Assembly: GCA_035432765.1 (NCBI GenBank)
Contig: DAORTR010000001.1
Coordinates: 1-63,997 of the forward strand
DNA: 63,997 nt
Direction: 5' to 3'
Origin: Pyrinomonadaceae bacterium
GTDB taxonomy: Bacteria; Acidobacteriota; Blastocatellia; Pyrinomonadales; Pyrinomonadaceae
Shown: positions 38,263 through 63,997 of the stretch, one piece after another
Layout: every line of letters begins with the position of its first letter
How positions within the stretch are numbered: position 1 is the stretch's first letter
The notes under the pieces: model-generated
Databases searched by the model: none
Seen by the model: only the letters and a program-made list of their open reading frames with translations
What the model was told of the DNA's origin: nothing
Translations under genes and position numbers: made by a program

Positions 38263-38808
38263 CTAGAATCTGAAAATGTTGCCGGGACGGAGCGTGCCGC
38301 CGAGTTCCGACAGCGCAGACGCGTCCAGGTCAGAGATGCGGGTAGCATCGAAATAACCGCCGATGAACGCCCTTATCGTCGTATCACCTACGCCGTCGCT
38401 ACCTTCGTCGGCGATACACACCGCTATCTGCGAACCATCGCTCGCGAGGATGGACTGACCATTTGCAACCGCGACCGCGGCGTTTGCGGTTAGCGTAACC
38501 ACGCCGTCGTTCGCGATCGAGAGGATTGTGCCGACGCTCGCTCCGGCTGCGTTCGTGAGGATGTCGCCTGGGACGAAAGAGCCGGGAATGACGCGACCGT
38601 TCGGTGAGCCGGTCGTGAATGCCGTCGAGATAACAGTTGATCTGCCTCGCCGGCGATACTTGCCGCTCGAACCGATCTGACCGAGGGTGTCGCCGCGGCC
38701 AACCACGAACCCCGATTTGATCGTCAACGGAATCGCGACCGCTTGTTCCGGTGCGACCGCTTCAAGCGGCTCTTGTGCGGCGGTTGTTTCCAAAACTTGA
38801 GTTGGCAT
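38263..38808 (-). CDS. head decoration protein (lambda gpD-like C-terminal domain)
   Basis: 181 aa between the protease/scaffold and capsid genes. The C-terminal pattern IAVCIADEGSDG...IRAFIGGYFD resembles the gpD family. Confidence 0.55.
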   Translation of the reverse strand: MPTQVLETTAAQEPLEAVAPEQAVAIPLTIKSGFVVGRGDTLGQIGSSGKYRRRGRSTVISTAFTTGSPNGRVIPGSFVPGDILTNAAGASVGTILSIANDGVVTLTANAAVAVANGQSILASDGSQIAVCIADEGSDGVGDTTIRAFIGGYFDATRISDLDASALSELGGTLRPGNIFRF

Positions 38809-39923
38809 TATTTTGCACCTCCTGCGATTTCGACGGCTGCTGTTTTAACGCCGGCCGCCGCCTTCATTGCATTGATTCGATCTGTGTTGACCAGGGCTCC
38901 GGCCTCGGGCGAAGCCTCGAGCTGGCCGAAACGCTCGCCGAATTCGACGATCGCCGGCAGTTCGGTAACGAACTGCTTGAACCACTCGACACGCGAGAAC
39001 TCGATCGGCTTTTCACCGGCTTTGCGTTCCGCGAATTTGATCGCGGCTTTGCCGCCGTCGCGTTCGTCCGCGTCGGCAAGCGATTCCATAAAATCGACAA
39101 CGCCGGCGCTCTTTAGATAGTGACGGGCCTTTTCGACCGGGATCGATTCGACGAACGATACGATCTGCGATCTGCGTCCGGTCGCAACGCCCGCGTCGAT
39201 CTTCTTCACGAGTTCGGCGTTCACGACGGCAAGAGCGTCGAACTTCGCCTTGTACTCGGCGGTCGTCGCAGCAACAGCCGACTTGACCATCGCACTGATC
39301 TGTTCCTCGGAAAGGCTCATCACTGCCGTCTGCTCTGAAGCAGGCGGTGCAGTCTGATCGGCCGCAGGCGGCGTCTTTGCGTCGCCCTCTTTGAACTCGG
39401 CCTTTTGCCCGCCGAGCTTCGCTTTGACTTTTTCCCAGAAGCTTTCCGGCAACTGGTCGAGATCTTCCTCTTCCATTTTTTTCTCCTCTGTCAGGTTGAT
39501 TACTTCGACGGCGAAGGAATCGCCGTCCGAAAATTTGATATCCGCCAGGCCCTTAATGGCCGGAGCCGCACCGCCGAGGAACCCGACGTGTCGCAGGCTC
39601 GGCGGATCGAGATAGAACGATGCCGACCGTTTTTTATAACGTCCGGCTTCGACGAGTTTTTCGAACTCGTCATCCGTATCGACGAAACGCGCCTCGAGCA
39701 CGTCGCCGTTAAGCCGCAGGTCGCTCGTCCAGCCGAACGCCGGCTCAGTGTCCGAGTCCGGATGTCCGACGACGACGGGAGCGTCGTGACCGCCCGCTTT
39801 GTAGTTCGCGATCACTCGCTTAATCCACTCCGGCGAGAGGTCGCGTGCCGTGCCTGTCGAATCGGTCGCCTGCCCGAGGCGTGCGATCTCGATCCACTGA
39901 TTGTTAAATCCGACCTTCGGCAT
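38808..39923 (-). CDS. Mu gpI-like head maturation protease with C-terminal scaffold region
   Basis: N-terminus NQWIEIARLG ... VVVGHPDSDTEPAFGWTSDLRLNGDVLEARF ... RYKKRSASF, as in the Mu I family. The C-terminal half is helical and charged. Confidence 0.8.
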   Translation of the reverse strand: MPKVGFNNQWIEIARLGQATDSTGTARDLSPEWIKRVIANYKAGGHDAPVVVGHPDSDTEPAFGWTSDLRLNGDVLEARFVDTDDEFEKLVEAGRYKKRSASFYLDPPSLRHVGFLGGAAPAIKGLADIKFSDGDSFAVEVINLTEEKKMEEEDLDQLPESFWEKVKAKLGGQKAEFKEGDAKTPPAADQTAPPASEQTAVMSLSEEQISAMVKSAVAATTAEYKAKFDALAVVNAELVKKIDAGVATGRRSQIVSFVESIPVEKARHYLKSAGVVDFMESLADADERDGGKAAIKFAERKAGEKPIEFSRVEWFKQFVTELPAIVEFGERFGQLEASPEAGALVNTDRINAMKAAAGVKTAAVEIAGGAK

Positions 39924-39980
39924 AATAAAAAGAAAGAGGCCCGCGAATCCTTTTTAGGATCACGGGCCTCGCAGGGCCTC
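39924..39980 (-). terminator. intrinsic-terminator-like hairpin abutting the gpI start codon
   Basis: Minus-strand RNA reads GAGGCCCUGCGAGGCCCGUGAUCCUAAAAAGGAUUCGCGGGCCUC followed by UUUCUUUUUAUUAUG. The stem has 8 GC-rich bp plus an inner helix. Two alternative 5' GAGGCCC arms are available. Confidence 0.7.
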
Positions 39981-40009
39981 TTGCTGTTCGTCGTTTGAGC
40001 TTGTTTTAG

Positions 40010-40270
40010 TTAGGGCGTCTCAGCGCCTCGCTTTTCGAGAGCCGCATCAGATAAGGAGCGTACGGCCGTTTCGTTATGGATACTATTCTTTTCTGCATCG
40101 GGTTGCAAGTAAATTCGATTACTGCGACCGCACTTTTTACATTTATATCGGAGAACGCCGCTCGAACCCGCCTTGATCTCGCAGATCATACGACGGCAAC
40201 TGGGACAGCGGACGGGAAGGAATCCGTTGTCCGTTTCCGGCTGAATTTTATCGTATTGCGATTTCTGCAT
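40010..40270 (-). CDS. Com-like zinc-finger protein (Mu Com family)
   Basis: VRCPSCRRMICEIKAGSSGVLRYKCKKCGRSNRIY parallels Mu Com IRCKNCNKLLFK...IEIRCPRCKR. ATG at 40270. Confidence 0.7.
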   Translation of the reverse strand: MQKSQYDKIQPETDNGFLPVRCPSCRRMICEIKAGSSGVLRYKCKKCGRSNRIYLQPDAEKNSIHNETAVRSLSDAALEKRGAETP

Positions 40271-40404
40271 CACTGACTATCTACCCAGTACCCTTCCAAA
40301 CCTCTCCAAACCGTTCAGTATCGATCCAAATCCGAAATAGGTAGTAGGGCTTGGGTTCGCTATTTTTCGACCGCCAAATCGCGACCATTCGCGACGTGTC
40401 CCGA

Positions 40405-41175
40405 TCACCTCGATCGGAATGAAATATCTAGTTCCTGTTTTAGGACCTTGAGATAATTCTCAACCTCGGCACGCGTCACCGGACGATCGTCGTGAGTGCG
40501 TCGTTTGAGATCTCGATGAGCCGCGATGTGCAGCAGTGCATTCACGAGGGCCGTCGCCTGCCGGAACGTAAGTCGCTTGTACGAAAGCGTCGGACTTGCC
40601 GCGATCGCACTTGCCCATGGAAACCGCTTCGCCAAATACTTTTGGACGTCCGCGTCGCTCCACGTTAGATAGCGCTGGAGCTTATCGAGCGTATAGACCT
40701 GTTCGTGCGAGGAGAGAAAAACGGTTTCGCGTGGTCTCGGCTGCGTGCCGCTTTTTCCCTGCCCGAAATGAGCGCGAACGACGTTGCCGGCCTCTGCCCG
40801 CTTTCTCGGCACATACGACTGTATCGGTTTCGGATCTGTGTAGCCCGTCAAACGCTTCAACTCGCCGGCGACAAGGCCGAGATGCTCGTCCGATAGATCA
40901 GAGAGCGATCCGAGCGGATTCGCAAGGTCGAGGAATTCCGTGATCCAGCTGAGGCGAGCTTCGCGGTCGGCCTCGCTGCCCTCGCGTCCGGCAAGCTGCT
41001 TCCAGCAGATGTTTATCGCCGCGTAGGCTTTCGTTCGCCATTCCCGCGAACCGCCGCGTCTCGTTGTTCGTGTTGCCTGCATTTGATCGTTGCTCCCTGT
41101 TTTCTTGGCAGGACGGACACCGCCGCCCCGCCTGGCTATTTTATTAAAGGGTCGTTGCGTGAGCCTCGCCCTCAC
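40405..41175 (-). CDS. GemA/gp16-like regulatory protein (DUF1018)
   Basis: Two-part pattern: AINICWKQL...REARLSWITEF...LSDLSDEHLGLVAGELKRL and LTFRQATALVNALLHI. The true start may be the internal Met near 41082. Confidence 0.55.
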   Translation of the reverse strand: MRARLTQRPFNKIARRGGGVRPAKKTGSNDQMQATRTTRRGGSREWRTKAYAAINICWKQLAGREGSEADREARLSWITEFLDLANPLGSLSDLSDEHLGLVAGELKRLTGYTDPKPIQSYVPRKRAEAGNVVRAHFGQGKSGTQPRPRETVFLSSHEQVYTLDKLQRYLTWSDADVQKYLAKRFPWASAIAASPTLSYKRLTFRQATALVNALLHIAAHRDLKRRTHDDRPVTRAEVENYLKVLKQELDISFRSR

Positions 41176-41205
41176 GTTGGCGGCGGCGGTAGGCCGCGAA
41201 AAGTG

Positions 41206-41451
41206 TCATCGGATTTTCTCCTCGATGCCTTTACTCTGCAAGACTTTTCGCTCTTTACGTGCTTTCTCAAGCACGTTTGTACGGAATTCTTCGCACAATC
41301 GCTCCAATATCGCCTCACTGATTTCGTGCAATGCGTATGTCGAAGGCTCAAGATGGCGAGAGCTGCCGTCGCTTGGCGGCAACTTAACGGTGACAAAATT
41401 AGGCGTGGTGAACGGAGCGAGTTCTACTTCCATTTTTATAATCGTTGTCAT
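41206..41451 (-). CDS. hypothetical early protein
   Basis: 81-aa ORF co-oriented in the early operon. Confidence 0.5.
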   Translation of the reverse strand: MTTIIKMEVELAPFTTPNFVTVKLPPSDGSSRHLEPSTYALHEISEAILERLCEEFRTNVLEKARKERKVLQSKGIEEKIR

Positions 41452-41535
41452 CGCGTTACCTCATCCTCAATGCCTTCGTGGGCGATTCGATGAGCCGCGG
41501 CGCGTTGTCGTTCATTTCGTTTTCTCCTTCTTCCA

Positions 41536-41724
41536 TTATTTTTTCTCTCCTTGCATCCGCTCCCACTCTCTGCCTGCGAACCAGATCGCCTTTATAAGGG
41601 CGTCCGCAAACGGACTAGGCGACGGCCACTTTATCCCGTTCTTCGGAAACCACTCCCTGTAGAGGGAGCGATATATCGTGTTGACCTCATCTCGCTCTTC
41701 TTTTGTCCACATTTTCCTCGTCAT
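41536..41724 (-). CDS. hypothetical early protein
   Basis: 62 aa from MTRKMWTKEE.... Its start overlaps the upstream stop (ATGA). Confidence 0.5.
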   Translation of the reverse strand: MTRKMWTKEERDEVNTIYRSLYREWFPKNGIKWPSPSPFADALIKAIWFAGREWERMQGEKK

Positions 41725-42170
41725 TTTGTTTTCTCCTCCACGAAATCCAGCGTCATCTGACCGGCAAGCCGCGGATAATTCTTCTTCAGCATTATCGCGA
41801 CGGTGCTCGCCTCGTCTTTGATCTGTGCAAAAAACACTTTTGCAAATTCCTCGACCTCCGGCTCGGTTCGTCCCCACCAATAACCGGCGGGAAAGCCCTT
41901 TCGGCTGCAGATCGGGAAGCCGCGTTCGCGGCGAAACCGTCGGATCATTAGACGAACCGTCCGGTTCGTCAAGAGCGTCTGCGATTCGCGCGTTACCTCG
42001 GCGATCAGCTCTCGCTGTTTGACAGGCTCCGTTGTCGTGGCTCGCAGCAGCCGACCCACGACAACGATCTCGATATTGCTAAGGCCGACGCTCGACGCCG
42101 GATTTATGATCTCCTCCTCGACTGTCTCTTCGGGAAGGAATCTGTTTGGTTCTACTTCCGTGCCCTGCAT
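41721..42170 (-). CDS. hypothetical early protein (possible winged-helix)
   Basis: 149 aa from MQGTEVEP.... The longer ORF prefix, reaching up to 42380, looks non-coding. Confidence 0.5.
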   Translation of the reverse strand: MQGTEVEPNRFLPEETVEEEIINPASSVGLSNIEIVVVGRLLRATTTEPVKQRELIAEVTRESQTLLTNRTVRLMIRRFRRERGFPICSRKGFPAGYWWGRTEPEVEEFAKVFFAQIKDEASTVAIMLKKNYPRLAGQMTLDFVEEKTK

Positions 42171-42187
42171 ATACCTTTCGCCTCCTT

Positions 42188-42952
42188 CTACGCGATCATC
42201 GCGTCCGCACGCAGTTCGTCGGGGACGTCTGCGAGGTTCGCTACCATGTCGTAGTTCAGCAATGCGTTGATCACCGACGCGCGTTGTGCTGCGTTGAGCG
42301 TCGCCGCTGTCGCCGACCGGAATTCTTTGGCGAGCCACGCTCGATATGACCGCTGATCCTTGCCGATGATCAGTCCGCATTCCTCGGCGAGAGCGTGGAT
42401 CTGCCGCAAGTCCTTGCCGCGAAGCTCACTCGCATCGGCACGCTTATGCAGTTCGATCTCCTCCTCTGAAAGTCGCTCATCCTCGGCAGGCGACAAGGCC
42501 GGCCGCGTCGGATATGCGGATCGAAAGCCCGCCTTGAACGGGTGAAAGCCCGCGGCACTTAACGCCGCCTGCAAAGCCCGTCCTTGAGCCAGAGCGTGCG
42601 TATCGAGGCTTACGACCTCGTCGCCCACTTCGCCGCCGTGCTCCTCGCCGATCGTCGCAACGCCGCATCGCTCGAACGTTCTCCCGTCAGCGTCGATCAC
42701 TTTTGCATTCCAAATTTGCTGTTCGAGTTCGCGAACGTACTGGTTGAACGAAATGCCGACGTAGGTGAACGATCCGATCTGCAGTGCGATCGACTGCAGA
42801 AGATCGGGCGGGATCCATGGCTCGTCCGCTTGGCTGAAAAATCGGCATCTAGCGAGAGCCGCTTCCGACAAGCCATATTCGTGCTTGAGGGTATTGAGGC
42901 TCCGCAACTGGCCGGCGGTTAGTATCTGTCGTGTCTGTTGTTGTGTAGTCAT
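42188..42952 (-). CDS. hypothetical early protein
   Basis: 254-aa ORF with no family recognised. The start is uncertain because it overlaps the upstream ORF by about 100 nt. Confidence 0.55.
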   Translation of the reverse strand: MTTQQQTRQILTAGQLRSLNTLKHEYGLSEAALARCRFFSQADEPWIPPDLLQSIALQIGSFTYVGISFNQYVRELEQQIWNAKVIDADGRTFERCGVATIGEEHGGEVGDEVVSLDTHALAQGRALQAALSAAGFHPFKAGFRSAYPTRPALSPAEDERLSEEEIELHKRADASELRGKDLRQIHALAEECGLIIGKDQRSYRAWLAKEFRSATAATLNAAQRASVINALLNYDMVANLADVPDELRADAMIA

Positions 42953-43202
42953 AAGTCGTCTCCGGTGTTTTGTCTCTTAGGGTTTTGCCGAGTGCGATTC
43001 CGATAACGGAAGCAGGGATGTAGCTGCGGCCGCCGCACTCGGCACATCTGCCGTCGGCTGTCAGCATTGTTTTTCTCGGCAGCGTCTCGTCGCCTGCGCA
43101 GTCGCCGCAGACTATCCGCGTCGCGGTTACTGCCGGAATCGACGCGGGCGAGATCGTGTCAAAAAGCGAACCTGTGAGCAGTCGTATCTGTTGTCGGTTC
43201 AT
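42849..43202 (-). CDS. hypothetical zinc-ribbon protein
   Basis: CGDCAGDE ... CAECGG cysteine pairs. It lies directly downstream of the MuB-like gene. Its 3' end overlaps the next ORF. Confidence 0.45.
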   Translation of the reverse strand: MNRQQIRLLTGSLFDTISPASIPAVTATRIVCGDCAGDETLPRKTMLTADGRCAECGGRSYIPASVIGIALGKTLRDKTPETTYDYTTTDTTDTNRRPVAEPQYPQARIWLVGSGSR

Positions 43203-43211
43203 ATCGTCTCC

Positions 43212-44306
43212 TTATCCGAGCATCAGACGCGTCATCGCGCTTGCGACGAGGTCCTCCGCTTTCAGGTCTCCGGCGGCGATCGCCTCGGCATTCTTGTCGA
43301 ATAACGCTTTCAATCGCGGCAGCAGGAAGCTCAGGTTGCGAAAGTTCGCGACCTGATACGTGCCTGTCGTCGATCGCTGATTGCTCGATATCGCGTTGAA
43401 TACCGCCGCGACGACCGCCGCCGTTGCCCGTCGTCCGAGAGTCTTTTGAACGACCGGCTTAACCTCTTCGAGCGAGAGCCCCTTGAGCGGAACGAACATC
43501 GCGACGCGGCTCGAAAGCTGCGCCTTGATGTCCTCCCGATCGGTGAGCATCGAAAATAGTTCGTAGAGTTGATGCGTTCCCGCGAGAACGATGCCGACGC
43601 GTGCCCGCTCCCAGATGTGGCAGATCGTGCCAAGCCCGCGTTCGTCCAAATAGTTCGCTTGATCCACGAAGATCACGCGCTTGTTTTTGATCAGGCTCTC
43701 GGCGATCCGATCCTCGGTTTCGGGAATGCAGCCGAGGTTCTTGAGTCGCAGTTCGGAGGCAAGCCGCCGGACAAAATAGCCTGGCGTTATGTTCCGCGAA
43801 CACAGTATCCGTATCGGCGGCGTCGTCATCCGATCGAGTACGTACTGCTGCAGCGAAACCGATTTACCGTGCCCCGGCGAACCGTACGCGACGACGATGA
43901 TATTCTCCTCGATCGCGGTCGAGCAGGCGTATTCGAGTTGACTCGCGAGCACCGTTCGCACGAATCCGATGCCGCTGCCGTCGGCGTTCGTGTTTTCCAT
44001 TCGGTCAAGATATTCGCGAACTTTACTCTCGATGCGGCTCGCCTTCGGGTTAACGGCTGCTCCTCCCGGCCCGCCGCGAAGAAAATATTCGCCTTTCAAA
44101 AGCAGGTCGAGTGCCGTCTTCGAAACGCCGATCGAGTGTTCCTTGTCGAGCACCGACGTTGTCAGATGCGGATGCTCGCTCATAAATCTCTCGAACCTAA
44201 GGCGAAGCGCTTCATCGTGACTGCTTCCGCTGCCGCCGACGATGTTCACGCTGCCACGCGTTTCGTCCAGTCGGCTCGCGGCCGACATTGTTAATCGTGA
44301 TCCCAT
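43212..44306 (-). CDS. MuB-like AAA+ transposition ATPase
   Basis: Walker A GSPGHGKS and Walker B VIFVDQANYL. GGAG lies 7 nt upstream of the ATG at 44306. The ORF is open up to 44399. Confidence 0.8.
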   Translation of the reverse strand: MGSRLTMSAASRLDETRGSVNIVGGSGSSHDEALRLRFERFMSEHPHLTTSVLDKEHSIGVSKTALDLLLKGEYFLRGGPGGAAVNPKASRIESKVREYLDRMENTNADGSGIGFVRTVLASQLEYACSTAIEENIIVVAYGSPGHGKSVSLQQYVLDRMTTPPIRILCSRNITPGYFVRRLASELRLKNLGCIPETEDRIAESLIKNKRVIFVDQANYLDERGLGTICHIWERARVGIVLAGTHQLYELFSMLTDREDIKAQLSSRVAMFVPLKGLSLEEVKPVVQKTLGRRATAAVVAAVFNAISSNQRSTTGTYQVANFRNLSFLLPRLKALFDKNAEAIAAGDLKAEDLVASAMTRLMLG

Positions 44307-44436
44307 TTCAATTCTCCAAATGTTTTTGTAATTGACTTGAGCCTGTCGGTACGTGGTATAAACGTTCCTGACAAACCGGTCGTAAATCGTCTCCAACACG
44401 TTCTCGGCCGTGTCTCTTTTGTTGAGGAGGCTTTGT

Positions 44437-44952
44437 TCAAGAAAGCCTCTTCTTCTTTCTGCTGTTGTGTATGATCTCGGGGTCTATCTCTTCGATCAGA
44501 TCCCGAATCTTTTTGATAGCTATGTCGTCCGATAGACGGAAATCGTCGCCCAGAACGTCGTAGGTCTCTCGCACGATCGCCGCAAGCCGATCGGGCAGCC
44601 GCAGAATTTTCGTTGTCATTTCATCGACCATCCAGTTCACCTCCTGTTTTAATTTCTTTTCCCGTCGCTCTTTTGCGATGAGAAGCACTGCATAAACTCG
44701 TCGAAACTGTCGGTAGGTCGCAATGTGAGAGAGCGTCTGCGGGCTCGGTATCTCGCGTTTGTGCACGAACCGGAACCGGAGGCCGTATTTGGCGATCTGC
44801 TCAACGGGAAAGGCATAGCTGCCGCGACAGATCATGCACACTCGAAATCTTCGTTTTCGGTGGACGACCCTACCGCCGTCATCGTCCCTGCGAGTTTTCC
44901 GTCCGCACACGCTGCAGACTTTCCGTCGTCGCTTCTGCTCATCCCCACCCAT
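44437..44952 (-). CDS. hypothetical zinc-ribbon protein inserted between the transposase and the ATPase
   Basis: 171 aa with CSVCGRK ... CMICRG, an Arg/Lys-rich N-half and a helical acidic C-half. GC is lower by eye. Confidence 0.5.
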   Translation of the reverse strand: MGGDEQKRRRKVCSVCGRKTRRDDDGGRVVHRKRRFRVCMICRGSYAFPVEQIAKYGLRFRFVHKREIPSPQTLSHIATYRQFRRVYAVLLIAKERREKKLKQEVNWMVDEMTTKILRLPDRLAAIVRETYDVLGDDFRLSDDIAIKKIRDLIEEIDPEIIHNSRKKKRLS

Positions 44953-45166
44953 AGCGAATTGCCTCGAAGAAAAATTTAATTGGTCCGCCTAACGGGCATC
45001 ATCAACCGCTAAAGATGACCGCTGTCGCATGGAGCTGAACGCCTGACGTTGCCTGGACAAGCAACGCGGAGATTGTTGCGTTCGTTTTTACCCCGTCGTG
45101 TCACATCCATTCTCCGGGGAGCGGTTTCTATCACGCCAGCGCGGACCAAACTTGAGTTTTCAATTT

Positions 45167-47404: not shown

Positions 47405-47411
47405 CGTTGCG

Positions 47412-53256: not shown

Positions 53257-53271
53257 CCCGATCAAACAAAA

Positions 53272-54176: not shown

Positions 54177-54190
54177 GTTCATTTGATTTG

Positions 54191-54944: not shown

Positions 54945-54950
54945 TTATCT

Positions 54951-55400
54951 ATGGTGAACCTTCTCCTGCAGGACACGCCGTTGAGCGTCAACTGGACACA
55001 GTTTGGAGTGGCGGGCGGTGCCATTTTCGTTGTCTTTCTCGTTCTCTTTTTTTTACTGAAGATCGCGCCGACGCTCACGGCAACTTGGAAGGAGATAAAA
55101 CTCGCCGAGATCGAAGTTCGGTCAAAGGAGACCGAGGCTCGGACGCAAGAGGCCGAATCGCGGGCACAGCAGGCGCACGGATTTTCGCAGCTTGCGAACG
55201 CACTCTCTCAGATGAGCAGCGTCCTGCACGATGTCGTTATCGAGCAGCGGCACGCAACCGACAAGGTTATGATCCTGCAGCGTGTGAACGCTGATACGAG
55301 CGAGCAGGTGATGGCCTCGATCACCGAATTGACCGATGAGATCGCGGCGATCAAAGACGCTCTCTCATACAAAGTGAAAAATGGAACTCAAGCAAAATAA
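54951..55400 (+). CDS. membrane-anchored coiled-coil protein
   Basis: 149 aa with a TM segment (GGAIFVVFLVLFFLL), followed by coiled coil. Confidence 0.5.
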   Translation: MVNLLLQDTPLSVNWTQFGVAGGAIFVVFLVLFFLLKIAPTLTATWKEIKLAEIEVRSKETEARTQEAESRAQQAHGFSQLANALSQMSSVLHDVVIEQRHATDKVMILQRVNADTSEQVMASITELTDEIAAIKDALSYKVKNGTQAK

Positions 55401-55762: not shown

Positions 55763-56368
55763 ATGGGACGTCGTTCAACCGTCGAGAAGCTGCTCGACGA
55801 GCAATTCGATTTTGTTATCCGGCAGATCCTTGACGGACGGACGGATCGCGAGATCTCGGCGGCCTTCGAGGATAGGTATGGCGAGGCACTTCCGAAATCG
55901 TCGTTGAACACATGGAGAAACTCTGCAGGCAACGAACTCGCCGAGCGGTATCGACTCAAGCGGTTTCAGGTTCGCTCATTTGTTGAGCAGCTAAAGTCCG
56001 AGGGCGTTGATGTAGCCGAAGATCACTATTCGATGATCATCCAGAGTTTGGAAGATCACCTTTTGACCGCCGAGCGTGACCTCGTTGCGAATGATCCGCT
56101 AAAGCTTCTCGCCGCGAGGCAGGAGGACGAGCGTTTGAAGATCAAGCGGGAGCAGATCGCACTCAACCGGCAAAAGCTCGATTTTGAGAAAGAGAAACAC
56201 GAACGCGAAGCGGCTGTCCGCGTTGACCGCCTCGCGATCGGGGCAAGCGTCCTAAAGTTCTTCCTGTTCTGGCTAAACGATAACGAACCGCACGTCGCCG
56301 ATGTCGTAACGCGACGCGGTGGGGCGATCGCTGAAGCCCTCGAAGGTTTTATTGAGGAGATGCCGTAA
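55763..56368 (+). CDS. terminase small subunit, Mu gp27-like (DUF3486)
   Basis: MGRRSTVEKLLDEQFDFVIRQILDGRTDREISAAF N-terminus, typical of the gp27 family. Precedes terL. Confidence 0.7.
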   Translation: MGRRSTVEKLLDEQFDFVIRQILDGRTDREISAAFEDRYGEALPKSSLNTWRNSAGNELAERYRLKRFQVRSFVEQLKSEGVDVAEDHYSMIIQSLEDHLLTAERDLVANDPLKLLAARQEDERLKIKREQIALNRQKLDFEKEKHEREAAVRVDRLAIGASVLKFFLFWLNDNEPHVADVVTRRGGAIAEALEGFIEEMP

Positions 56369-56377: not shown

Positions 56378-58117
56378 GTGGCGACTAAACTCACACTGCC
56401 GAAAAAGCCGATCAGCCGCTCCGAGTTTCGCGAGCTGGCCCGCCGCGCGACCGAATCGGTGCAGCAGCAGCGTGCAGCCGCACAGATCGCGTCAGAATCG
56501 CTCGAAGCGGGACGTGCCGCCTTTGGACCGAGCGACGGCACTATCGAGGAACGTCACGCCCGGACGCGCAATTCGCCGCTCGAATTCGGGCGAGTGTATC
56601 TGCCGCACTTTTTCGACAACGTAACGCCGCCGTATCATCACTGTCTCGACCGGCTTCTTGTCGGCGACTACACGCAGAGCGATCTCGAACGATGGACGGA
56701 AGATCTCGGGATCGAGGTTTTTGAGGGCGATCCGCTTTTGCGTCTGCTCGCCGTCTGCATCTTTCGCGGCGGCGGCAAGTCCGTATTCGCGATCTTGTTC
56801 GATACCTTGCGACGAATCTGTCACGGCCTCGATCCATATATCATTATCGGCTCCGACACGGTCGGTCAGGCGGCCTCGCAGCTCGAGGATATCAAAGACG
56901 AGCTTGCGTCGAATGAGAAGATCCGAGCTGACTTCGGGAACCTGAAACCGTCAGCCGGCGTTTGGCGTGAGGCCGAAGTGGTTCAGCGAAACGACGGCCG
57001 CGTCGTCTGGCGTGAAGGGCAGATCATCACGACGAATCGCGTCCGCGTTGACGCGATCGGACGCGGCGGTAAAATGCGCGGTCGCCGCTTCGGCACCAAA
57101 CGGCCTACGCACATCATTCTCGACGATCTCGACAACGACGAGAACGTCGCAACGAAGGACCAGCGTGAGAAGGCTTGGAACTGGGTGATCTCGGCGGTCG
57201 AACCTGCACGCGACCCGCAGAGGGGGCGCATCGTCATCATCGGCACGATCATACACTTCGATTGCGTTATCGCCCGATCGGTGCGAAAAACCGATGCCGA
57301 CGGCAATCGCTTTTTTACGTCGATCCGTTTTCCCGTGATGCACCGCGACGACGAAGGGCAGTGGGTTTCCGCTTGGCCGGAGCGGTTCGAGGTGAGCAAA
57401 CTTCTCGCGACACGCGACCTGCTCGGCCCGACGAAATTCGGAGCCGAGTATATGAACGATCCGCGTGATCCCGACACGCAGATATTCGTGCCAGATCGCT
57501 TCTATTATTATCTGCAGTCCGAACTTACGGATAAGCGACTGTTCCGGATCCTCTACGTCGATCCGTCGAAAGGCAAAAAAGGGAAGGGCCGCAAAAAAAG
57601 CGACTTCTCCGGCTTCGCCGATGTGCTGGTCGATCCGTCGGAGAGAGTGACGTGGGTGCTCAACGCATTTCGTAAACGCCTCAGCCCTAACGCCGCAAAG
57701 GGCGAGGTCATCGAGTGGTATATCGAGGCTATGAGGGGCCGTTATCCCGTTGAACTGTGGATCGAAGAAAACTCGTTCGGCGACATCCTCGGCGAGAACT
57801 TTCAGGACGAGTTGCGCCGTCGCGGACTCGATGTCCGCGTTCACACGCTGCTGCACACGACCGAGAAAGTGGCTCGACTCGAACGCCACTCGATCCGCGT
57901 CGAGACCGGCGGCGTTCGGTTTCCCGCTCGCTGGTCGCAGGACACGTCGCGACCGGAGTGGTTCGCAGAGTATGAAGATTTTCCGGCAGGGAGTTTTGAC
58001 GACACGATCGACGCGATCGAATCGGCAGATGACATCGGCCTAAATCACATCGCCGGCTTGATCGAATTTCGTTCGTCCGGACAGCGGACGGGAAGTGCAG
58101 CGATGAAGGGATTTTGA
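56378..58117 (+). CDS. terminase large subunit
   Basis: 579 aa. Walker A-like RGGGKS, Walker B HIILDDLDNDEN, and a C-terminal nuclease region with YVDPS and DDTIDA acidic motifs. Confidence 0.85.
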   Translation: MATKLTLPKKPISRSEFRELARRATESVQQQRAAAQIASESLEAGRAAFGPSDGTIEERHARTRNSPLEFGRVYLPHFFDNVTPPYHHCLDRLLVGDYTQSDLERWTEDLGIEVFEGDPLLRLLAVCIFRGGGKSVFAILFDTLRRICHGLDPYIIIGSDTVGQAASQLEDIKDELASNEKIRADFGNLKPSAGVWREAEVVQRNDGRVVWREGQIITTNRVRVDAIGRGGKMRGRRFGTKRPTHIILDDLDNDENVATKDQREKAWNWVISAVEPARDPQRGRIVIIGTIIHFDCVIARSVRKTDADGNRFFTSIRFPVMHRDDEGQWVSAWPERFEVSKLLATRDLLGPTKFGAEYMNDPRDPDTQIFVPDRFYYYLQSELTDKRLFRILYVDPSKGKKGKGRKKSDFSGFADVLVDPSERVTWVLNAFRKRLSPNAAKGEVIEWYIEAMRGRYPVELWIEENSFGDILGENFQDELRRRGLDVRVHTLLHTTEKVARLERHSIRVETGGVRFPARWSQDTSRPEWFAEYEDFPAGSFDDTIDAIESADDIGLNHIAGLIEFRSSGQRTGSAAMKGF

Positions 58118-58121: not shown

Positions 58122-58337
58122 ATGGACGAACAGCAAATTAGAAACAATTTTACCTACCACGAACCGATTAAAGACCAGTCGATCCGTTATGGACGCCTGC
58201 GAAATTACGCCCGTGAGATGGCCGAGCAGATCAATCAGCTTTGCCCAGAGTCGCGTGAAAAAAGCCTCGCCTTCACAAATCTTGAACAAGCTTTGATGTG
58301 GGCAAATGCAAGCATCGCCCGAAACGAAACTGAATGA
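58122..58337 (+). CDS. small conserved-looking hypothetical protein
   Basis: 71 aa (FTYHEPIKDQSIRYGRLRNYAR ... EQALMWANASIAR). Coupled to the terL and methylase genes. Confidence 0.55.
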   Translation: MDEQQIRNNFTYHEPIKDQSIRYGRLRNYAREMAEQINQLCPESREKSLAFTNLEQALMWANASIARNETE

Positions 58338-59092
58338 AGTTTGACTTTTCAAATCAGAGATTGCATCACGCAGATTGGCGTGAGGTGCTTCCGTCTCTGC
58401 CGGACGCATCGGTTGATCTCCTTTTGACCGACCCGCCGTACGGGACGACGAACCTCGTTTGGGATCGCAAGATCGACTGGACGGAGTTTTGGGGCGAGAT
58501 AAAACGCGTCTGTAAACCAAACGCGCCGATGGTTATTTTTGCTTCGGGCAAGTTCGTGAACGAGTTGGTCAATTCGAATCCGCACGATTATCGTTACGAG
58601 CTGATCTGGGAAAAATCTCTAGCGGTCGGTTTCCTTGACGCAAATCGCCGTCCGCTGCGGGCGCACGAACAGATACTTATTTTCACGCGAAAGAGTTTTC
58701 GCGGCTCGACCTACAATCCGCAAATGGTCGAGGGGCAACTGCACAAAACCGGCGGCGACGGTAGAAAGGCTCCGCACTATGGCGGGCATCGATGCGGCAC
58801 AAAAACGGTCGTTACGAACCTCTATCATCCGCGATCGGTGTTGCGGTATTCGAATCAGGTTCGAGGCCGCAGCCTGCACCCGACGGCCAAGCCGCTCGAA
58901 CTCGTGGAATGGCTTGTCCGCACGTACAGCGATCTCGGCGGCCTCGTTCTCGATCCCTTTGCGGGCAGCGGGACGACGCTCTGTGCGTCGATGATCGCAG
59001 AGCGTCGTTCGATCGGCTGCGAGGTTGACCGAAACTACTTTGACACCGCGAACGGAAGGCTTGTCGAACTGGAGGCGGCACTCGCTCTATGA
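58334..59092 (+). CDS. beta-class N4/N6 DNA methyltransferase
   Basis: Motif IV LLTDPPYGT precedes HPTAKPLELVEWLV and motif I LDPFAGSGTT. Confidence 0.85.
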   Translation: MKFDFSNQRLHHADWREVLPSLPDASVDLLLTDPPYGTTNLVWDRKIDWTEFWGEIKRVCKPNAPMVIFASGKFVNELVNSNPHDYRYELIWEKSLAVGFLDANRRPLRAHEQILIFTRKSFRGSTYNPQMVEGQLHKTGGDGRKAPHYGGHRCGTKTVVTNLYHPRSVLRYSNQVRGRSLHPTAKPLELVEWLVRTYSDLGGLVLDPFAGSGTTLCASMIAERRSIGCEVDRNYFDTANGRLVELEAALAL

Positions 59093-59445
59093 GTTACAAA
59101 TTTGTTTTCACCGCAGGGCTTTCCGTGCAGCTGCCGATGCAGTACCTGACAAAAAACGCCGACGGAACACGCACGCCGATCAACCTGACGGGAAAGACCG
59201 TCGCGGTTCGCTTCGTTGTTCGCGGAGCGGCGTCGCCGTTACTAGCTCTCGAATCGGGAGCGGCCGCGACCGCGAACGGTTCGAGCCTGCAGGTGAGCAA
59301 CGCCGTTGAAGGTCGCTTTGTCATAACGGTTACGGTCGAGGAGATAGCCGCGATGACTCCGCCCTGCTTCGGACGGGCATATCTAACTTTGGAGGATACG
59401 ACCGGTACGCGTGAACTCGCGGACCTGCCGTTCAGCGTTTTATGA
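59089..59445 (+). CDS. hypothetical beta-rich (Ig-like?) protein
   Basis: 118-aa ORF with an ATGA overlap on both sides. Confidence 0.5.
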   Translation: MSYKFVFTAGLSVQLPMQYLTKNADGTRTPINLTGKTVAVRFVVRGAASPLLALESGAAATANGSSLQVSNAVEGRFVITVTVEEIAAMTPPCFGRAYLTLEDTTGTRELADLPFSVL

Positions 59446-60458
59446 GTGACCCGATAGTTGAGGCGAAAAAGCTCGTCACCGAGATCCTTACCATCGGCAT
59501 CCAAGGCCCGTCCGGTGCCACGGGGCCGCAAGGTCCGCAAGGTCCGCAAGGCGTGCCGGGTACCAGTGGCGGTGGGGAGACGGCGGCGACGGTGTTGGCG
59601 AAGCTGAACGCTAGTGGGTTGAAGTTCATTGATCCTACTCTCGTTCCCTCGTTTCCGTCGTTAGCAAGTTTCGGTTCGGATACAGTTAGTACGATTCCGA
59701 CCGCCGACACAGGACGGACGGGTTTATCGCAAAAATATTGGTTTCACCTCGATGGTAGTTATCAGAGCATTTTCGGAAACAAACTCGAACTCATAACAGA
59801 GGGTGCTCCTACGGGTGCGAATGTTACGGGGTTTGATATTAACGTCTCGAACTACAACACGACGGGAATTGACAGTCTATACGGTTTCGCGGTGACGGCA
59901 AATGCCGAATGGAGAGCTGAATATATTTATGGCGGCTTTTTTTCAGCGGCTCCGGGTTCGATAAATGCAGATGGTTCGCCGTTTATCTCAGGCGTTTCTT
60001 CGTATGCAGGTTTCGGCCACCACGCAAATACAGGCCGCACGGTCGGCTTTGAAGCCGCACTTATTGCTGCTGCGTCGACCGTGCCTGTTGTCGCCGATGA
60101 AGTCATCGGGTTGAACGTCTGGGGGCATGCAAATAACAACTCAACGGCAGACAAGGCTTATGGAATTTTCATCGAGAGTTTTACGAGAGCGGGCACGGGT
60201 GGATGGAATCACGTTTACGCAGTTCACGCCGCGGCAGATGCGTATGCAAACACGCCGGACGGTTGGTTTTTACACAACCTGAGTCCTGCTCCGAGTTTGT
60301 TGTCGGGAGAACTTCAATTTGCAAAACTCGCGGCTGAACCTGCGAATCCACCGGCGGGCAGATTCTCGATCTACGGTCTCGACAACGGTGCGGGCAAGTT
60401 GAAGGTGATGGTGAAGTTTCCAAGCGGAACTTCGCAGCAACTAGCAATCGAAAGCTAG
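59442..60458 (+). CDS. collagen-like-repeat fibre protein
   Basis: A G-X-Y run (GPSGATGPQGPQGPQGVPGTSGG) near the N-terminus, followed by a roughly 280-aa globular region. Confidence 0.65.
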   Translation: MSDPIVEAKKLVTEILTIGIQGPSGATGPQGPQGPQGVPGTSGGGETAATVLAKLNASGLKFIDPTLVPSFPSLASFGSDTVSTIPTADTGRTGLSQKYWFHLDGSYQSIFGNKLELITEGAPTGANVTGFDINVSNYNTTGIDSLYGFAVTANAEWRAEYIYGGFFSAAPGSINADGSPFISGVSSYAGFGHHANTGRTVGFEAALIAAASTVPVVADEVIGLNVWGHANNNSTADKAYGIFIESFTRAGTGGWNHVYAVHAAADAYANTPDGWFLHNLSPAPSLLSGELQFAKLAAEPANPPAGRFSIYGLDNGAGKLKVMVKFPSGTSQQLAIES

Positions 60459-60475
60459 TCAAACAATTTGGTCTT

Positions 60476-61195
60476 ATGGCTGATATGTACGCAAACGAGG
60501 GCTATTTCACAGCGCTTCTTCAGTCGGCGATCGATGCCGTGAACGTCGCGGTCGCGGCGATCGACGGTGCTGTGAATGGCGTGGCCGCCGAGGTCGCGGA
60601 AGCTCGCGGCGATCGCTCGTCCGTGCATAAACGTATCTCGTGCATCTCGAACTTCGCAAGCCCGAACGCGGGCGGCATCGTCGTTGGGAATTATTACGAT
60701 TCGTGCTTTCACGCGTCCGCCCAAGGAACGCTTGCGGGAGCGGCAAACCGCCTCACTCTCTTCCCGTTCTACACGTCGGATCACCTAGCGATAAACGACA
60801 TCGGCGTTCTGGTTTCGACGGCAGTTGCGGCCGCTCAAGGCAAGGTCCTGATCTATGGAAGCGGTGCGGACAACTGGCCGTCAGACAAACTCTTTGAGTC
60901 ATCGCCTCTCGACTTCTCGACGATCGGATACAAAGGCGCGGCGATCAATTTCACGTTCGACGCCGGACGACAATATTGGCTTGGGCTGACGGAAAGTTCG
61001 ACGGCCACGCTGCGGGCGATAGCGGTCGCGGCGGCAGTAAACCTTGGACTCGCGGGCAATACGGGAACGAGTTATTACACAGTGATCCGTCGGACGGTAA
61101 CATTCGCGAACCCGGCTCCGGCCACGTGGGTTTTTAACAAAGCAGAACTTACGGCGAACATCACGCCGCCGTCGATCCGATTTAAGGCGGCTTAG
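60476..61195 (+). CDS. hypothetical protein (fibre-associated?)
   Basis: 239-aa ORF with an Ala-rich helical N-terminus and a beta-rich C-terminal region. Confidence 0.5.
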   Translation: MADMYANEGYFTALLQSAIDAVNVAVAAIDGAVNGVAAEVAEARGDRSSVHKRISCISNFASPNAGGIVVGNYYDSCFHASAQGTLAGAANRLTLFPFYTSDHLAINDIGVLVSTAVAAAQGKVLIYGSGADNWPSDKLFESSPLDFSTIGYKGAAINFTFDAGRQYWLGLTESSTATLRAIAVAAAVNLGLAGNTGTSYYTVIRRTVTFANPAPATWVFNKAELTANITPPSIRFKAA

Positions 61196-61200
61196 ATTTT

Positions 61201-61413
61201 ATGAAAGAAACTACGGAAACACAGTCTTCACAGCCGTCAATGAATGACGTCAAAGCTGCCATCTACGATTGTACGGTGGAGATCAGGAGACAACAGTCGA
61301 TGATCGCACAGTTCGAACAAGCTCTTGCTCATTTGATGACACAACAGAATTCATCGATCAAGCAGGACATCGACGCGATCAACGATGCACGTACCGCAAA
61401 GGATGCGTTATGA
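61201..61413 (+). CDS. small coiled-coil hypothetical protein
   Basis: 70-aa ORF whose stop overlaps the next ATG. Confidence 0.45.
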   Translation: MKETTETQSSQPSMNDVKAAIYDCTVEIRRQQSMIAQFEQALAHLMTQQNSSIKQDIDAINDARTAKDAL

Positions 61414-62177
61414 ACACGCATATCATCATCGGGATAGTTGTGGCGGCGGTTTGTGTCATCGCGTTCGCGTGGCTGTTTTTGTGGCGTGGACGGGACAAGG
61501 ACGATGTTTGGGACGGCCTTGTCGATCTTGGCATACCGAAAGACCACGCGAAATGGAAGCACACATACAACGAGGCTCCATACACGCTCTCAACGGTCGA
61601 GGTTCCCGCGCAGATGCTGCCCGTCGTGAGAATCGGTATTAGGCGAACGATCACACGTTGGCTAGAGAAGTTCCCAGAGTGGACGAACGAGAGAGAACTC
61701 TCGGACTATCGGATGCTTTTCATCGACCCGATGGCAACGAATCGAGATGGAAGCCCTGCAATTAAGGTCAAAGGAATTCAGTCCGCCGGAACGACCATTG
61801 GCTTAGGCGAAGCTCCTATCACCGAACGTCCGTATTTAGTGCTTCCGCATCAGGGCGATTCAGGTTGGCGTTATACGGACTATCTACGCGACGCATCGGC
61901 GAACGAAGCCGATCACTACATCGCGGGATGCAACAATCTTATCGTGTTTTGGTGGTTTCTAGGACGACGCGACATTCATCCGCACGATCTAAGCACCTAT
62001 CCAGGCGACGCGGAAGCTCTGCGGATTCTCGCCCAAGAAGCGGGCGTTAACGTGATGCGAGTTTCAGCGGACGCGCTCGTGCGACAACAACGGTCGATCC
62101 TGCGAGCCTACGCGAAGCATCTCGCCGCGAACCCGCAAGAGCTTGGATGCTCGGTTGCAAACAAACTGACAAAGTAG
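61410..62177 (+). CDS. membrane-anchored hypothetical protein
   Basis: 255 aa from MNTHIIIGIVVAAVCVIAFAWLF, in the same frame as the listed ORF 61269..62177. Confidence 0.5.
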   Translation: MNTHIIIGIVVAAVCVIAFAWLFLWRGRDKDDVWDGLVDLGIPKDHAKWKHTYNEAPYTLSTVEVPAQMLPVVRIGIRRTITRWLEKFPEWTNERELSDYRMLFIDPMATNRDGSPAIKVKGIQSAGTTIGLGEAPITERPYLVLPHQGDSGWRYTDYLRDASANEADHYIAGCNNLIVFWWFLGRRDIHPHDLSTYPGDAEALRILAQEAGVNVMRVSADALVRQQRSILRAYAKHLAANPQELGCSVANKLTK

Positions 62178-62191
62178 CGTGCCGAAACAAA

Positions 62192-63997
62192 ATGACTAAC
62201 GAGAAGGTAGAACTCTTTTCCGAAATTCTGGCGTCCGATCAACTCGGACCCTATCAGAATTTCTCCTCGATGTTGATGGGCGTGATCCCGACGGCTGATC
62301 CGTCGTGGGTCTGGAGTCAGCTGTCGTGCAACCCGTGGATCGCGATGGCAATTTATTGGGAAATGGAGGAAAAAGACGCGGCCATCTTCTCAGCCCTAGA
62401 CACGCGGAAAACGAATGTTCTCTCGAAAACGTGGAATTTGTTTCCGGCCTCTGAAAAGCGGCAGGATCGCAAGATCGCCGACTTCATTGAAGAGTGTTTG
62501 AAGTCCCATTTTGAGGACTTTGACAGCTTTTTGTACGAGGCTCTGGATGCGATCGGTAAGGGCGTTTCGATCGGCGAGAAAATCTTCGTCCCGGCCGGCG
62601 ACCGCATCTGTATTTCGGACGTACGCTTCAAACCGCAGCATCTCTTTACGTTCGGCGAAACGGGAATCGCGAACTATTCGACAGCCTCGATCGCCTATCC
62701 GCAGACCGGGCCGCTGCAGCTGCGAACGGGCGTCAGCGTCGGCAACATAGCTCTCGGCGGCGTGCTCCCCGAGGAGAAGTTTTTTGTCTTCTCGTTCCGA
62801 ACGCGCTACGGGAATCGCTGGGGTGATCCCGTCGACCGAAAGGCCTTCTGGCCGTCGTGGATCAAGCGAAACTCAATTAAACAATGGCTTCGATACCAAG
62901 AAAAAGGCTCCGGTGTCGTCGTCGCTAAATATCCCGGAAGTTCCGGACCGAAAGAGCAGGGGGACGCATTAGCAGCTGCGGCCGCCGTCCAGGACGAAAC
63001 CGCCGTCGCGATCCCTGATAAGTTCGTGCTCGAAGTCCATGAGATGGTTCGCAATATCGGCAGTTCGCATAAGGAGCTAGTCGATGATTTTTGCAACGCA
63101 GAGATATCTCGCATCTACCTCGGCCAAACGCTCACAAGCCGCGGCTCGGACGGCGGCGGTAGTCGTGCTCTCGGCGAGGTTCACGAGCGAAAAGAAGACC
63201 GTATCGGCGAGGCAGACTGCCGCTCTCTGATGCAGGCAATAAATTCCCAGATCGTCCGTCCGCTCGTTCAGTTGAATTTCGGACTCTCGACTCCCTGCCC
63301 GCAATTCCGGTTCGACTACGAGCCGAAAGAGGACCTTGATGCAAAGGCAAAACGTTACGCCGTCATCCGCAAAGATATAGGCCTCGAACTGTCAAAAACC
63401 CAGGTTCGCGACGATCTTCAACTTGAGGAACCGACCGACGAAGGGGACACGCTCCAAGCCTCCACAAAGGCTGATGATCGCGGCCTCGCCGACAACGCCG
63501 ATCCGTCCGAGACTACCGAGTTCGCCGAGGGTGACGACCTAAAAAAAAACGCCAAAAACGTCCGTGATGCGATCGATCTTGAGGACGCAACACTTCGAAC
63601 ACTCGCTCCCATCTACGCGGGAATGCTCGAAAAAGCGATTCACGTCGTCGAACTTGCCGAGCTTCTAAACGTTAAGCCCGACCTCGACAAACTGCTGTCA
63701 GCCGACTTTCAAACCCTCGCCGACCGCCTCGCAACCGGAGCACTCGCAGCCTGCCTTTTGGGGCGGTATCGGGTTAAAACCATCGCTGCGAACTTCGCGG
63801 AAGGCGGCGACGATAAAGATAAGAAACGCCCCTCAAAGCGACGCTCGTGGCGTCAGGAAACCTACGGACCGAACGAAAAACACGAGACGGCCGACGAACT
63901 TATTCGCCCGAACAATTCGGTACTGACCGGACTCCGTTTCGACGTTCCGCCCGAAAAGGCGATTGAGTTTTTTAAGGGAAAGAAGATCGTGTCGCCC
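62192..63997 (+). CDS. portal protein, Mu gp29-like (DUF935), apparently continuing in frame into a MuF (gp30)-like N-terminus; 3' partial
   Basis: ATG at 62192. The frame stays open for 602 codons to the window edge, and the ORF is absent from the track because there is no stop. The portal-like body (WGDPVDRKAFWPSW ... LGQTLTSRGSDGGGSRALGEVH) is followed by LRFDVPPEKAIEFFKGKK, typical of MuF N-termini. Confidence 0.75.
   Translation, partial: MTNEKVELFSEILASDQLGPYQNFSSMLMGVIPTADPSWVWSQLSCNPWIAMAIYWEMEEKDAAIFSALDTRKTNVLSKTWNLFPASEKRQDRKIADFIEECLKSHFEDFDSFLYEALDAIGKGVSIGEKIFVPAGDRICISDVRFKPQHLFTFGETGIANYSTASIAYPQTGPLQLRTGVSVGNIALGGVLPEEKFFVFSFRTRYGNRWGDPVDRKAFWPSWIKRNSIKQWLRYQEKGSGVVVAKYPGSSGPKEQGDALAAAAAVQDETAVAIPDKFVLEVHEMVRNIGSSHKELVDDFCNAEISRIYLGQTLTSRGSDGGGSRALGEVHERKEDRIGEADCRSLMQAINSQIVRPLVQLNFGLSTPCPQFRFDYEPKEDLDAKAKRYAVIRKDIGLELSKTQVRDDLQLEEPTDEGDTLQASTKADDRGLADNADPSETTEFAEGDDLKKNAKNVRDAIDLEDATLRTLAPIYAGMLEKAIHVVELAELLNVKPDLDKLLSADFQTLADRLATGALAACLLGRYRVKTIAANFAEGGDDKDKKRPSKRRSWRQETYGPNEKHETADELIRPNNSVLTGLRFDVPPEKAIEFFKGKKIVSP

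Follow-up and report, generated by a model that had tools for sequence, protein, structure and literature searches.

Do capsid and packaging genes that point in opposite directions belong to one phage, and if so, is such an arrangement new? The question is raised by positions 1 to 63,997 of contig DAORTR010000001.1 (assembly GCA_035432765.1), the 63,997-nucleotide stretch analysed here and hereafter called the window. Its packaging and portal genes point opposite to its capsid and tail genes, with a central divergent switch at 50093–50293. Open reading frames (ORFs) were called and their proteins scanned against Pfam and PHROGs, which bore out the gene order and strands given for both arms in a preliminary description of the locus, as well as its statement that neither arm alone encodes a virion. 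On the plus strand, the lysis genes, terS, terL and portal-MuF are co-oriented with the repressor from 50294 to the right end, comparable to gp13–gp01 of phage KS10. On the minus strand, the transposition arm continues into protease/scaffold, capsid and tail genes (50092–21304), comparable to KS10 gp14–gp49. We consider it likely that the element is one Mu-like transposable prophage, to all appearance intact, with KS10-type organization, in a host probably of Pyrinomonadaceae type, and that its layout is a fixed, inherited rearrangement independent of KS10.

Extent and integrity of the prophage

The prophage extends from window position 20846 to ~65114, which is 1.1 kb beyond the window end. 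Public contigs with 100% identity to the window, retrieved by exact-protein look-up, supplied the rest of its right arm: ENA ERZ27275376 (45 kb), ENA ERZ27275391 (176 kb), Logan SRR6266368, Logan SRR5580759 and JGI 3300012533. The ends are of the TG...CA form, with 5'-TGTTGCGCAG... on the left and ...CTTACA(GCA)-3' on the right, and a 5-bp target duplication, TATGT, is present on both sides (left copy at 20841–20845). TGCGCAGATYGTTTTATGAAS occurs four times in the left terminus (20846–20960, no strand), which begins with TGTTGCGCAG; these end repeats are likely binding sites for the transposase, and the four matches at 20849–20960 compare with zero expected. The right terminus is located ~1.1 kb past the window; 116 nt inside it the left-end repeat recurs in inverted orientation, and the CA end and TATGT follow. 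That repeat copy (position 14523 of identical contig L001) was considered as the right end itself and rejected, as it has no target duplication; the end was placed at L001 14636–14639 according to the split host gene.

The gene interrupted by the insertion is a host Endonuclease_NS (DNA/RNA non-specific endonuclease) gene, cut at its DRGH motif. The left flank in the window codes for the N-terminal part of the nuclease up to DRGH, and joining the two flanks restores ...DRGHMCPSGDR..., the halves being located at window 19951–20845 and at 18738–19289 of identical contig L024. Since the element has TG...CA ends, a duplicated TATGT and a split nuclease gene at its borders, Mu-type transposition is the mode of insertion. 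Other traits of Mu-like phages (saltoviruses) are also present, including a MuA-type DDE transposase with a MuB-type ATPase, TG...CA ends with repeated end sites, a short duplication at a non-specific site, matches to Portal_Mu, Phage_Mu_F, phrog_976 and Phage_Mu_Gp36, and a length of 44,269 bp (~37–45 kb typical).

The window stops within the portal gene and so cannot by itself exclude two abutting elements meeting at ~50.1–50.3 kb, namely a Mu-like prophage without packaging genes and a second phage with its capsid and tail genes beyond the window; three assemblies moreover break at 63988–63997. The identical contigs, however, run through portal-MuF to a terminus with the inverted end repeat, CA and TATGT, beyond which lie the other half of the split nuclease gene and host genes. 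In the 176-kb contig, Endonuclease_NS, VWA and chromate-transporter host genes come directly after portal-MuF, and the second set of capsid, tail and replication genes on the right, which by the preliminary description would have overturned its finding, is therefore absent. Transposase, MuB and the set of ends each occur once in the element. We conclude from the exact ends, the target duplication and the split host gene that it is a single element; the two-element explanation is refuted by the identical contigs with phage end and host flank, and we give it practically no weight. The breaks themselves form a small curiosity: the window and two independent contigs (L003 and L025) end within 10 nt of each other (63988–63997) inside portal-MuF, and other contigs read through. 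No repeat or nearby variant accounting for these breaks was found, and where a 99% portal variant departs from the window protein, it does so at other sites.

Mu-like phages do break short-read assemblies, and several contigs end at 48.5–48.9 kb and at 63988, so the orientation of the right arm might be thought a misjoin or a collapsed inversion. Such an artefact is extremely improbable. Five samples gave assemblies that each cross at least one of the 40-kb and 50-kb junctions at 100% identity and that together cover the two several times; those of SRR6266368 and ERZ27275391 reach the phage end (the JGI contig stops just before it). Made in four different pipelines or archives (Logan, JGI and, in ENA, two contigs named k141), the assemblies agree letter for letter across both junctions, which excludes the misassembly against which the preliminary description had advised a check, and both diagnostic junctions recur in a relative from another sample at 52–81% protein identity. 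A programmed invertible region would also account for an inverted arm. Mu-family phages carry such segments, for example the G segment of Mu with its invertase, and the 14–25 kb segment could be a giant counterpart of which the window records one of two states. That account is hardly credible here: no repeat of at least 10 nt links the junctions in inverted orientation and no recombinase or invertase family match was obtained among the scanned proteins, so there is no sign of a flip-flop segment. All assemblies have one orientation, and the flipped state would put end sequences internally. The locus might, lastly, be a decaying, rearranged prophage remnant whose layout has no functional meaning, as a Mor/C activator was not recognized and several early ORFs lack homologues in the family libraries. 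We regard decay as improbable, given that no expected gene is truncated, the two ends and the target duplication are undamaged, each arm retains an intact leader, the layout is kept in the relative diverged to 52–81% protein identity, and KS10, with the same layout, forms plaques (PMC2628397). A single, apparently intact prophage remains our reading.

The split layout among transposable phages

The preliminary description presented the splitting of morphogenesis over two divergent arms as atypical. It is not unprecedented, because in the KS10 record (NC_011216; Goudie et al., 2008, PMC2628397) each gene has the same place on the map as here. In KS10 the capsid genes are reported as 'separated by approximately 11 kb' in two modules, and the first 17 kb of the genome are apparently inverted relative to Mu (PMC2628397). 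Both elements are transposable myoviruses with a Mu-like head and tail. On one strand of each, the order from the end is MuF, portal, terL, terS, lysis genes and repressor; on the other it is a DNA-binding (helix-turn-helix, HTH) protein, transposase, B, the GemA and Mor positions, protease/scaffold, a small head protein, capsid, tail, fibre and end. The two differ in that protein identity is 23–40% and few genes align, that portal and MuF are separate genes and GemA and Mor are recognizable in KS10, and that KS10 has neither a Com gene before the protease nor the leader described below (no match to its covariance model, R1). KS10 also lacks ImmA, Dam, Acb2 and the island found here, and its host is a betaproteobacterium.

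The central switch is a feature of the B3 (and BcepMu) type, in which the repressor heads lysis genes, terS, terL, portal and MuF, and transposase and B are reversed. In the B3 record, Mor, GemA, B, A and an HTH gene occupy the minus strand at 0.1–9.9 kb, and a c2-like repressor at 9990 of 38439 bp heads the lysis-terminase-portal arm; the B3 repressor does not lie beside the left end, as had been assumed. A mid-genome immunity switch whose repressor reads into the lysis-packaging arm is the normal B3 plan. B3 also codes for a Com-like protein. The difference lies downstream of MuF: the right arm of B3 continues into G, protease, capsid and tail, whereas here that block follows the early arm.

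Mu shares with the prophage its transposase/MuB replication, TG...CA ends, 5-bp duplication and head genes (portal gp29, F, I and gp36), and its late genes are likewise divided into several units that begin at lys and I. It differs in having the repressor at the left end and all other genes colinear. A similar split, with two arms separated by regulatory genes, has been reported for the Leptospira TG1 transposable prophages (2021, PMC8705779), in which no Mor/C was recognized either (PMC8705779). Those prophages reside in an unrelated host phylum and make 6-bp duplications, compared with 5 bp here.

The architecture therefore has precedents in KS10 and Leptospira TG1, and in B3 for one half; the present prophage is a new example, not a new kind. 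Calling it atypical is justified against Mu and D3112 and is not justified against transposable phages in general, as KS10 has the same map and B3 has a mid-genome switch. The host phylum is probably new for this layout. A head-gene split over divergent arms breaks the usual rule of colinear packaging, head and tail genes.

Megablast of both prophage halves against 50,697 phage records gave no match, nor did a single-protein scan of IMG/VR with the transposase. Scans guided by protein sequences, covering JGI metagenomes, IMG/VR and GTDB genomes, yielded ~190 loci, which were annotated with tblastn and jackhmmer. The closer relatives come from acidobacterial metagenome-assembled genomes (MAGs) and metagenomes, share 47–81% identity and have Mu-type or B3-type order; most GTDB loci are Pyrinomonadaceae or Acidobacteriota MAGs. 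Locus L016 (terL 81%) carries Dam, leader, lysis genes, terS, terL, Acb2, methylase, portal, MuF and end repeats, followed by DNA without phage homologues. Locus L011, from the same sample (transposase 57%, gpI 52%), carries transposase, B, the GemA position, Com, gpI and capsid. Loci L017 (terL 73%) and L032 (portal 51%, gpI 43%) are B3-type, and portal, MuF, (Com), gpI and capsid are colinear in L012, L018, L023 and those GTDB loci, about 10 out of 16, that extend as far as gpI (33–71%). Judged by the gene order of L011 and L016, the split layout is common to a diverged lineage, not a one-off.

A survey of ~150 gpI loci found 133 to be colinear, 7 to have early genes directly upstream and 10 to have portal-MuF on the opposite strand. 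The 7 loci with early genes upstream are four of the window phage itself plus L011, L042 and L105. In L042 (Ga0187893_10001607) and L105 (OSEO01001405), MuB and early genes immediately precede gpI, without intervening packaging genes; both are possible further KS10-type genomes, and L105 looks truncated. Loci with portal-MuF, sometimes together with terL, divergent from gpI and capsid (L049, L050, L055, L130, L154, L176, L191, L195 and L200) have Mu-type head genes and queuosine, PAPS-reductase or ParB genes, no transposase match, and membership in several unrelated clades. They were rejected as relatives of the layout, being other, probably non-transposable phages that share only the breakpoint. 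Because both the early-upstream and the divergent loci break there, the boundary between MuF and protease is a recurrent breakpoint.

Common descent with KS10 is not supported. The closer relatives, at 47–81% identity, have Mu-type or B3-type order and KS10 is only 23–40% identical, and for this reason the layout probably arose independently here and looks convergent with that of KS10. One inversion comprising the early arm, the switch and the lysis-to-MuF arm would turn a B3-type genome into the present layout. It would have taken place within the acidobacterial Mu-like clade, independently of KS10, and have been fixed and inherited since. Three points weigh against this account of the prophage. 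A single inversion is the most economical route but has left no detectable scar; the assignment of the host, probably a Pyrinomonadaceae-type acidobacterium, is drawn from the names of homologues, not from the window's own genes; and no Pfam or PHROG match to a Mor/C-family middle/late activator was obtained among the early-arm proteins. On the last point, the Leptospira prophages also have no recognized Mor/C, so this activator is not universal in Mu-like phages. As the split is real, inherited and probably convergent with KS10, annotators and prophage finders should not call such maps chimeras or two elements.

A leader shared by the two late units

A terminator scan flagged similar hairpins before gpI, the first gene of the head-tail late unit, and before the endolysin-like gene, and a 60-nt pattern common to both hairpins is unique in the window. 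The element, a leader of 61 nt, consists of a GAGGCYC box, a 14-bp GC-rich hairpin and a U-run, and ends 0–15 nt before the first gene. Copy 1 (39926–39986, minus strand) has a GAGGCCC box, ends 2 nt before the gpI ATG and contains a hairpin of -29.8 kcal/mol (z -3.3). Copy 2 (53193–53257, plus strand) ends 14 nt before the endolysin-like gene, has a hairpin of -30.2 kcal/mol (z -3.9) and is kept at the same place in relative L016. A larger duplicated segment was ruled out as the source of the two copies, which have 19 nt in common around them.

R1, the covariance model of the leader, has exactly two strong matches in the window, one at the head of each late arm (copy 1, 56.0 bits, E 3.7e-11; copy 2, 56.1 bits, E 3.4e-11). 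Relatives have 2–4 copies each, always on the late-gene strand, before the lysis block, gpI and sometimes the portal, tube or tape measure gene, and in nearly all members of the clade a leader directly precedes gpI. The leader-bearing loci are L011, L012, L016–L018, L023, L028–L040, L042, L044–L046 and L122–L127. In the stem alignment of 19 copies, 95.5% of cells are paired, compensatory changes are seen in 11 of the 14 pairs and 500 shuffles gave no result as good. All 19 combine the 14-bp covarying stem with a T-run, as in Rho-independent terminators; termination itself is predicted. No Rfam family covers the leader, and R1 has no match in KS10, B3 or the distant loci. Going by these searches, the leader is specific to this acidobacterial Mu-like clade.

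The last gene before copy 1 (40010–40273, minus strand) encodes a homologue of Com with a CxxC...CxxC zinc ribbon. A profile of 23 Com homologues, in which four Cys are invariant, aligns with Mu Com (hhalign probability 96.6%, E 6.9e-10) and with the Com-like ORF47 of B3 (hhalign probability 96.5%). Against Pfam Zn_ribbon_Com the window protein scores 20.1 bits, below the cutoff of 22.9, and 7 of the 23 homologues match at E 0.01 or better. In all 23 distinct homologues, a leader follows the Com gene by 17–175 nt. The published RNA target of Com is GAGNNCC(N)2-3GAGNNCC, from systematic evolution of ligands by exponential enrichment (SELEX). The motif is part of a small hairpin adjacent to an inhibitory stem-loop, which melts when Com binds. 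The gpI leader holds the only exact match to this consensus in the window, GAGGCCCTGCGAGGCCC, from 39980, where 0.39 are expected by chance in the whole window. The box can pair with the 5' base of the large stem as a competing 4-bp hairpin in 19/19 sequences, with two covarying pairs; since the box can pair in this way, the small and large hairpins are mutually exclusive. Such an arrangement would resemble that of Mu, whose zinc-finger regulator Com acts on RNA at a hairpin adjoining an inhibitory stem-loop. The large hairpin here excludes the start codon, unlike the translation-inhibiting stem-loop (TIS) of Mu. Mu Com also controls only mom, whereas here the Com gene and its putative target lie ahead of the head operon, with another copy of the target ahead of the lysis-packaging genes.

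The position of the leader after Com, together with the Com motif, suggests a shared switch coordinating the two arms. The large hairpin would block read-through or translation and keep the late units shut, insulating the lysis genes from transcription of the repressor arm and the head genes from transcription of the early arm. Com, encoded last on the early arm in this layout, would bind the box and small hairpin in competition with the base of the large hairpin, and its binding would open both arms together late in infection. It is possible, and we propose it tentatively, that in this clade a Com-type zinc-ribbon protein controls the main morphogenetic operons, not mom, through a leader in which Com binding competes with a terminator-like hairpin.

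Several points weigh against this proposal. The Com consensus, which derives from a distant Com, is exact in 2 of the 19 leaders (the gpI leader and that of L042), with seven more at two or fewer mismatches. Colinear relatives have Com downstream of the lysis-unit leader; Com therefore cannot open that first leader by itself, and another input must act there. The leader could, furthermore, be simply an inter-operon terminator or a 5' stabilizer. In its plain form, the terminator explanation holds that the two leaders are ordinary intrinsic terminators of the Com and Dam units, with no late-activation role and no link to Com. The GC-rich stem with its T-run, the constant placement of leaders at unit boundaries and the position of Com downstream of the first leader in colinear relatives all agree with it, and it is a serious rival, though in our estimate rather unlikely. 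A terminator has no need of the conserved single-stranded box 5' of the stem, nor of the fixed distance of 0–15 nt to the next start codon. Because there is no room for a promoter between the stem and the next gene, the late mRNA must contain the hairpin. The adjacency of Com and leader in 23/23 cases and the match of the box to the published Com motif likewise favor regulation by Com over termination alone.

With regard to the layout, the split falls exactly between a lys-like unit and an I-like unit, and each has kept its own leader. The stretches from lysis genes to MuF and from Com/gpI to tail would be separate late expression units, like the lys and I operons of Mu, and the rearrangement would be tolerated because the two are separate and each has its own leader copy. 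If control by Com is true, a leader on each late unit would allow units to be inverted or moved without losing control, which would explain the repeated origin of the KS10-type split at the boundary between MuF and protease. A breakpoint at a late-unit boundary supports operon-level modularity as a constraint on the rearrangement of phage genomes. The Com-plus-leader cassette is a new part and a compact candidate late-gene switch in phages of a poorly studied phylum.

Gene content of the two arms

The divergent switch region (50093–50293, no strand) contains short palindromes, GCTTACAGGTGTAAGC, GTGTCCGTCCGACAC and TGACATTTGTCA, which are candidate operators read from the sequence. To its right, the immunity block (50294–51715, plus strand; PHROG matches phrog_8, phrog_3 and phrog_87) comprises an HTH_3 repressor (50294–50686, Pfam HTH_3, E 4e-12), an ImmA-type metalloprotease (50688–51122, Pfam Peptidase_M78, E 3e-12) and a third gene encoding a 198-aa protein. 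Between the immunity genes and Dam, a 68-aa HTH_17/excisionase-like gene (51719–51925; phrog_10045 and phrog_66) lies on the minus strand, opposite to the rest of the arm. A 13-bp GC-rich hairpin beside it (51973–52005) was picked up by the terminator-like scan and gives a weak match to R1 (16 bits). The last gene before the second leader encodes a D12-class Dam methyltransferase (52276–53076, plus strand; Pfam MethyltransfD12, E 2e-21; phrog_56, E 4e-70).

The lysis and packaging genes are all on the plus strand. The endolysin-like gene (53272–53844) has a weak endolysin match, phrog_3000, and is followed by membrane, lipoprotein and spanin-like ORFs (53838–55400), a 125-aa ORF, a putative terS named by position (55763–56368, no family match) and terL (56378–58117, phrog_38, E 8e-80). 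The small lysis/packaging ORFs have homologues in the same order in relatives. Directly after terL, a 71-aa protein (58122–58337) matches Pfam Acb2_Tad1_hairpin (E 3e-17). The Acb2/Tad1 hairpin domain belongs to a family of sponges for cyclic-nucleotide immune signals. The Acb2-like protein is 85% conserved in L016 and is also present in L032 and L036. An N6/N4 methylase (58334–59092; Pfam N6_N4_Mtase, E 4e-29) precedes a strain-specific 3-kb island (59089–62177) with ORFs of 118, 338, 239, 57 and 255 aa. The 338-aa island protein has a GPQ collagen-like repeat, the 239-aa protein corresponds to phrog_25093 and the 255-aa protein is membrane-anchored. L016 lacks homologues of the island genes, and in it the portal directly follows the methylase.

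Of the Mu-type portal fused to MuF (62192–63997; Pfam Portal_Mu, E 1.5e-71; phrog_113), the window contains the part up to residue 602. The full 820-aa product contains Portal_Mu and Phage_Mu_F, its stop, seen in contigs L001 and L024, lying 657 nt past the window. Nine GCGCGCYTWGGAT repeats, some in palindromic pairs, separate this stop from the right terminus (L001 14164–14359, 0.65–0.85 kb past the window end). L016 has an array of 6–7 GCGCGCYTWGGAT copies at 11362–11585, and no copy occurs inside the window. Possible roles for the array are those of a pac site, a terS site or a group of sites for a regulator. Its core, TTTGGA, occurs three times in 31 nt on the minus strand at 40295–40325, between the GemA-position gene and Com, a cluster not kept in L011. 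The idea that this trio and the right-end array are halves of an array split by the inversion was dropped, as the L011 junction has no such cluster.

The early (transposition) arm, on the minus strand, extends over 40405–49460 and encodes a 225-aa GemA-position protein, small ORFs, the ATPase, the transposase, and early proteins of 298/341 aa and 130 aa. The transposase (45167–47404) is of the Mu DDE type, with Pfam DDE_2, Mu-transpos_C and HTH_Tnp_Mu_2 matches (phrog_310, E 9.5e-62), and the MuB-like ATPase (43212–44399) matches Pfam AAA_22 and phrog_296 (E 1.4e-30); no other early-arm gene has a Pfam or PHROG family match. The first early-arm gene (49853–50092, 79 aa), in the Ner/Cro position, has no Pfam or PHROG match and occupies the place of KS10 gp14 and B3 ORF17. 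The labels 'Ner/Cro-like', 'CII-like', 'GemA-like', 'decoration' and 'terS' used in the preliminary description likewise found no Pfam or PHROG match and are positional only; none of these candidates has a tblastn match to its KS10 or B3 counterpart, the sole terS match being a weak one inside the KS10 portal gene.

The head genes begin on the minus strand with the gpI-type maturation protease/scaffold (38808–39923; phrog_976, E 5e-49; Pfam Mu-like_Pro below cutoff). They continue with a 181-aa head-region protein in the 'decoration' position (38263–38808, no family match), the major capsid protein (37179–38246; Pfam Phage_cap_E, E 3e-19), a Mu gp36 adaptor (36501–36944; Pfam Phage_Mu_Gp36, E 1e-22) and a MuG-like Neck1/tail completion protein (36049–36504; phrog_26, E 1e-26). 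The tail module (21304–36036, minus strand) contains a Mu gp37-like gene (35392–36036; weak Phage_Mu_Gp37 match in the contig gene tables), sheath (33638–35161; phrog_23, E 2.7e-52), tube (33203–33634; phrog_4542), a chaperone-position gene, tape measure (29714–32323; phrog_28, E 7e-42), baseplate genes (24785–29711; baseplate wedge phrog_6, E 2e-33), fibre (21988–24804) and two small ORFs. In the host flank, an AdoCbl-II (cobalamin) riboswitch at 17405–17481 (minus strand; 42 bits, above the Rfam gathering score) lies upstream of a gene at 16363–17295.

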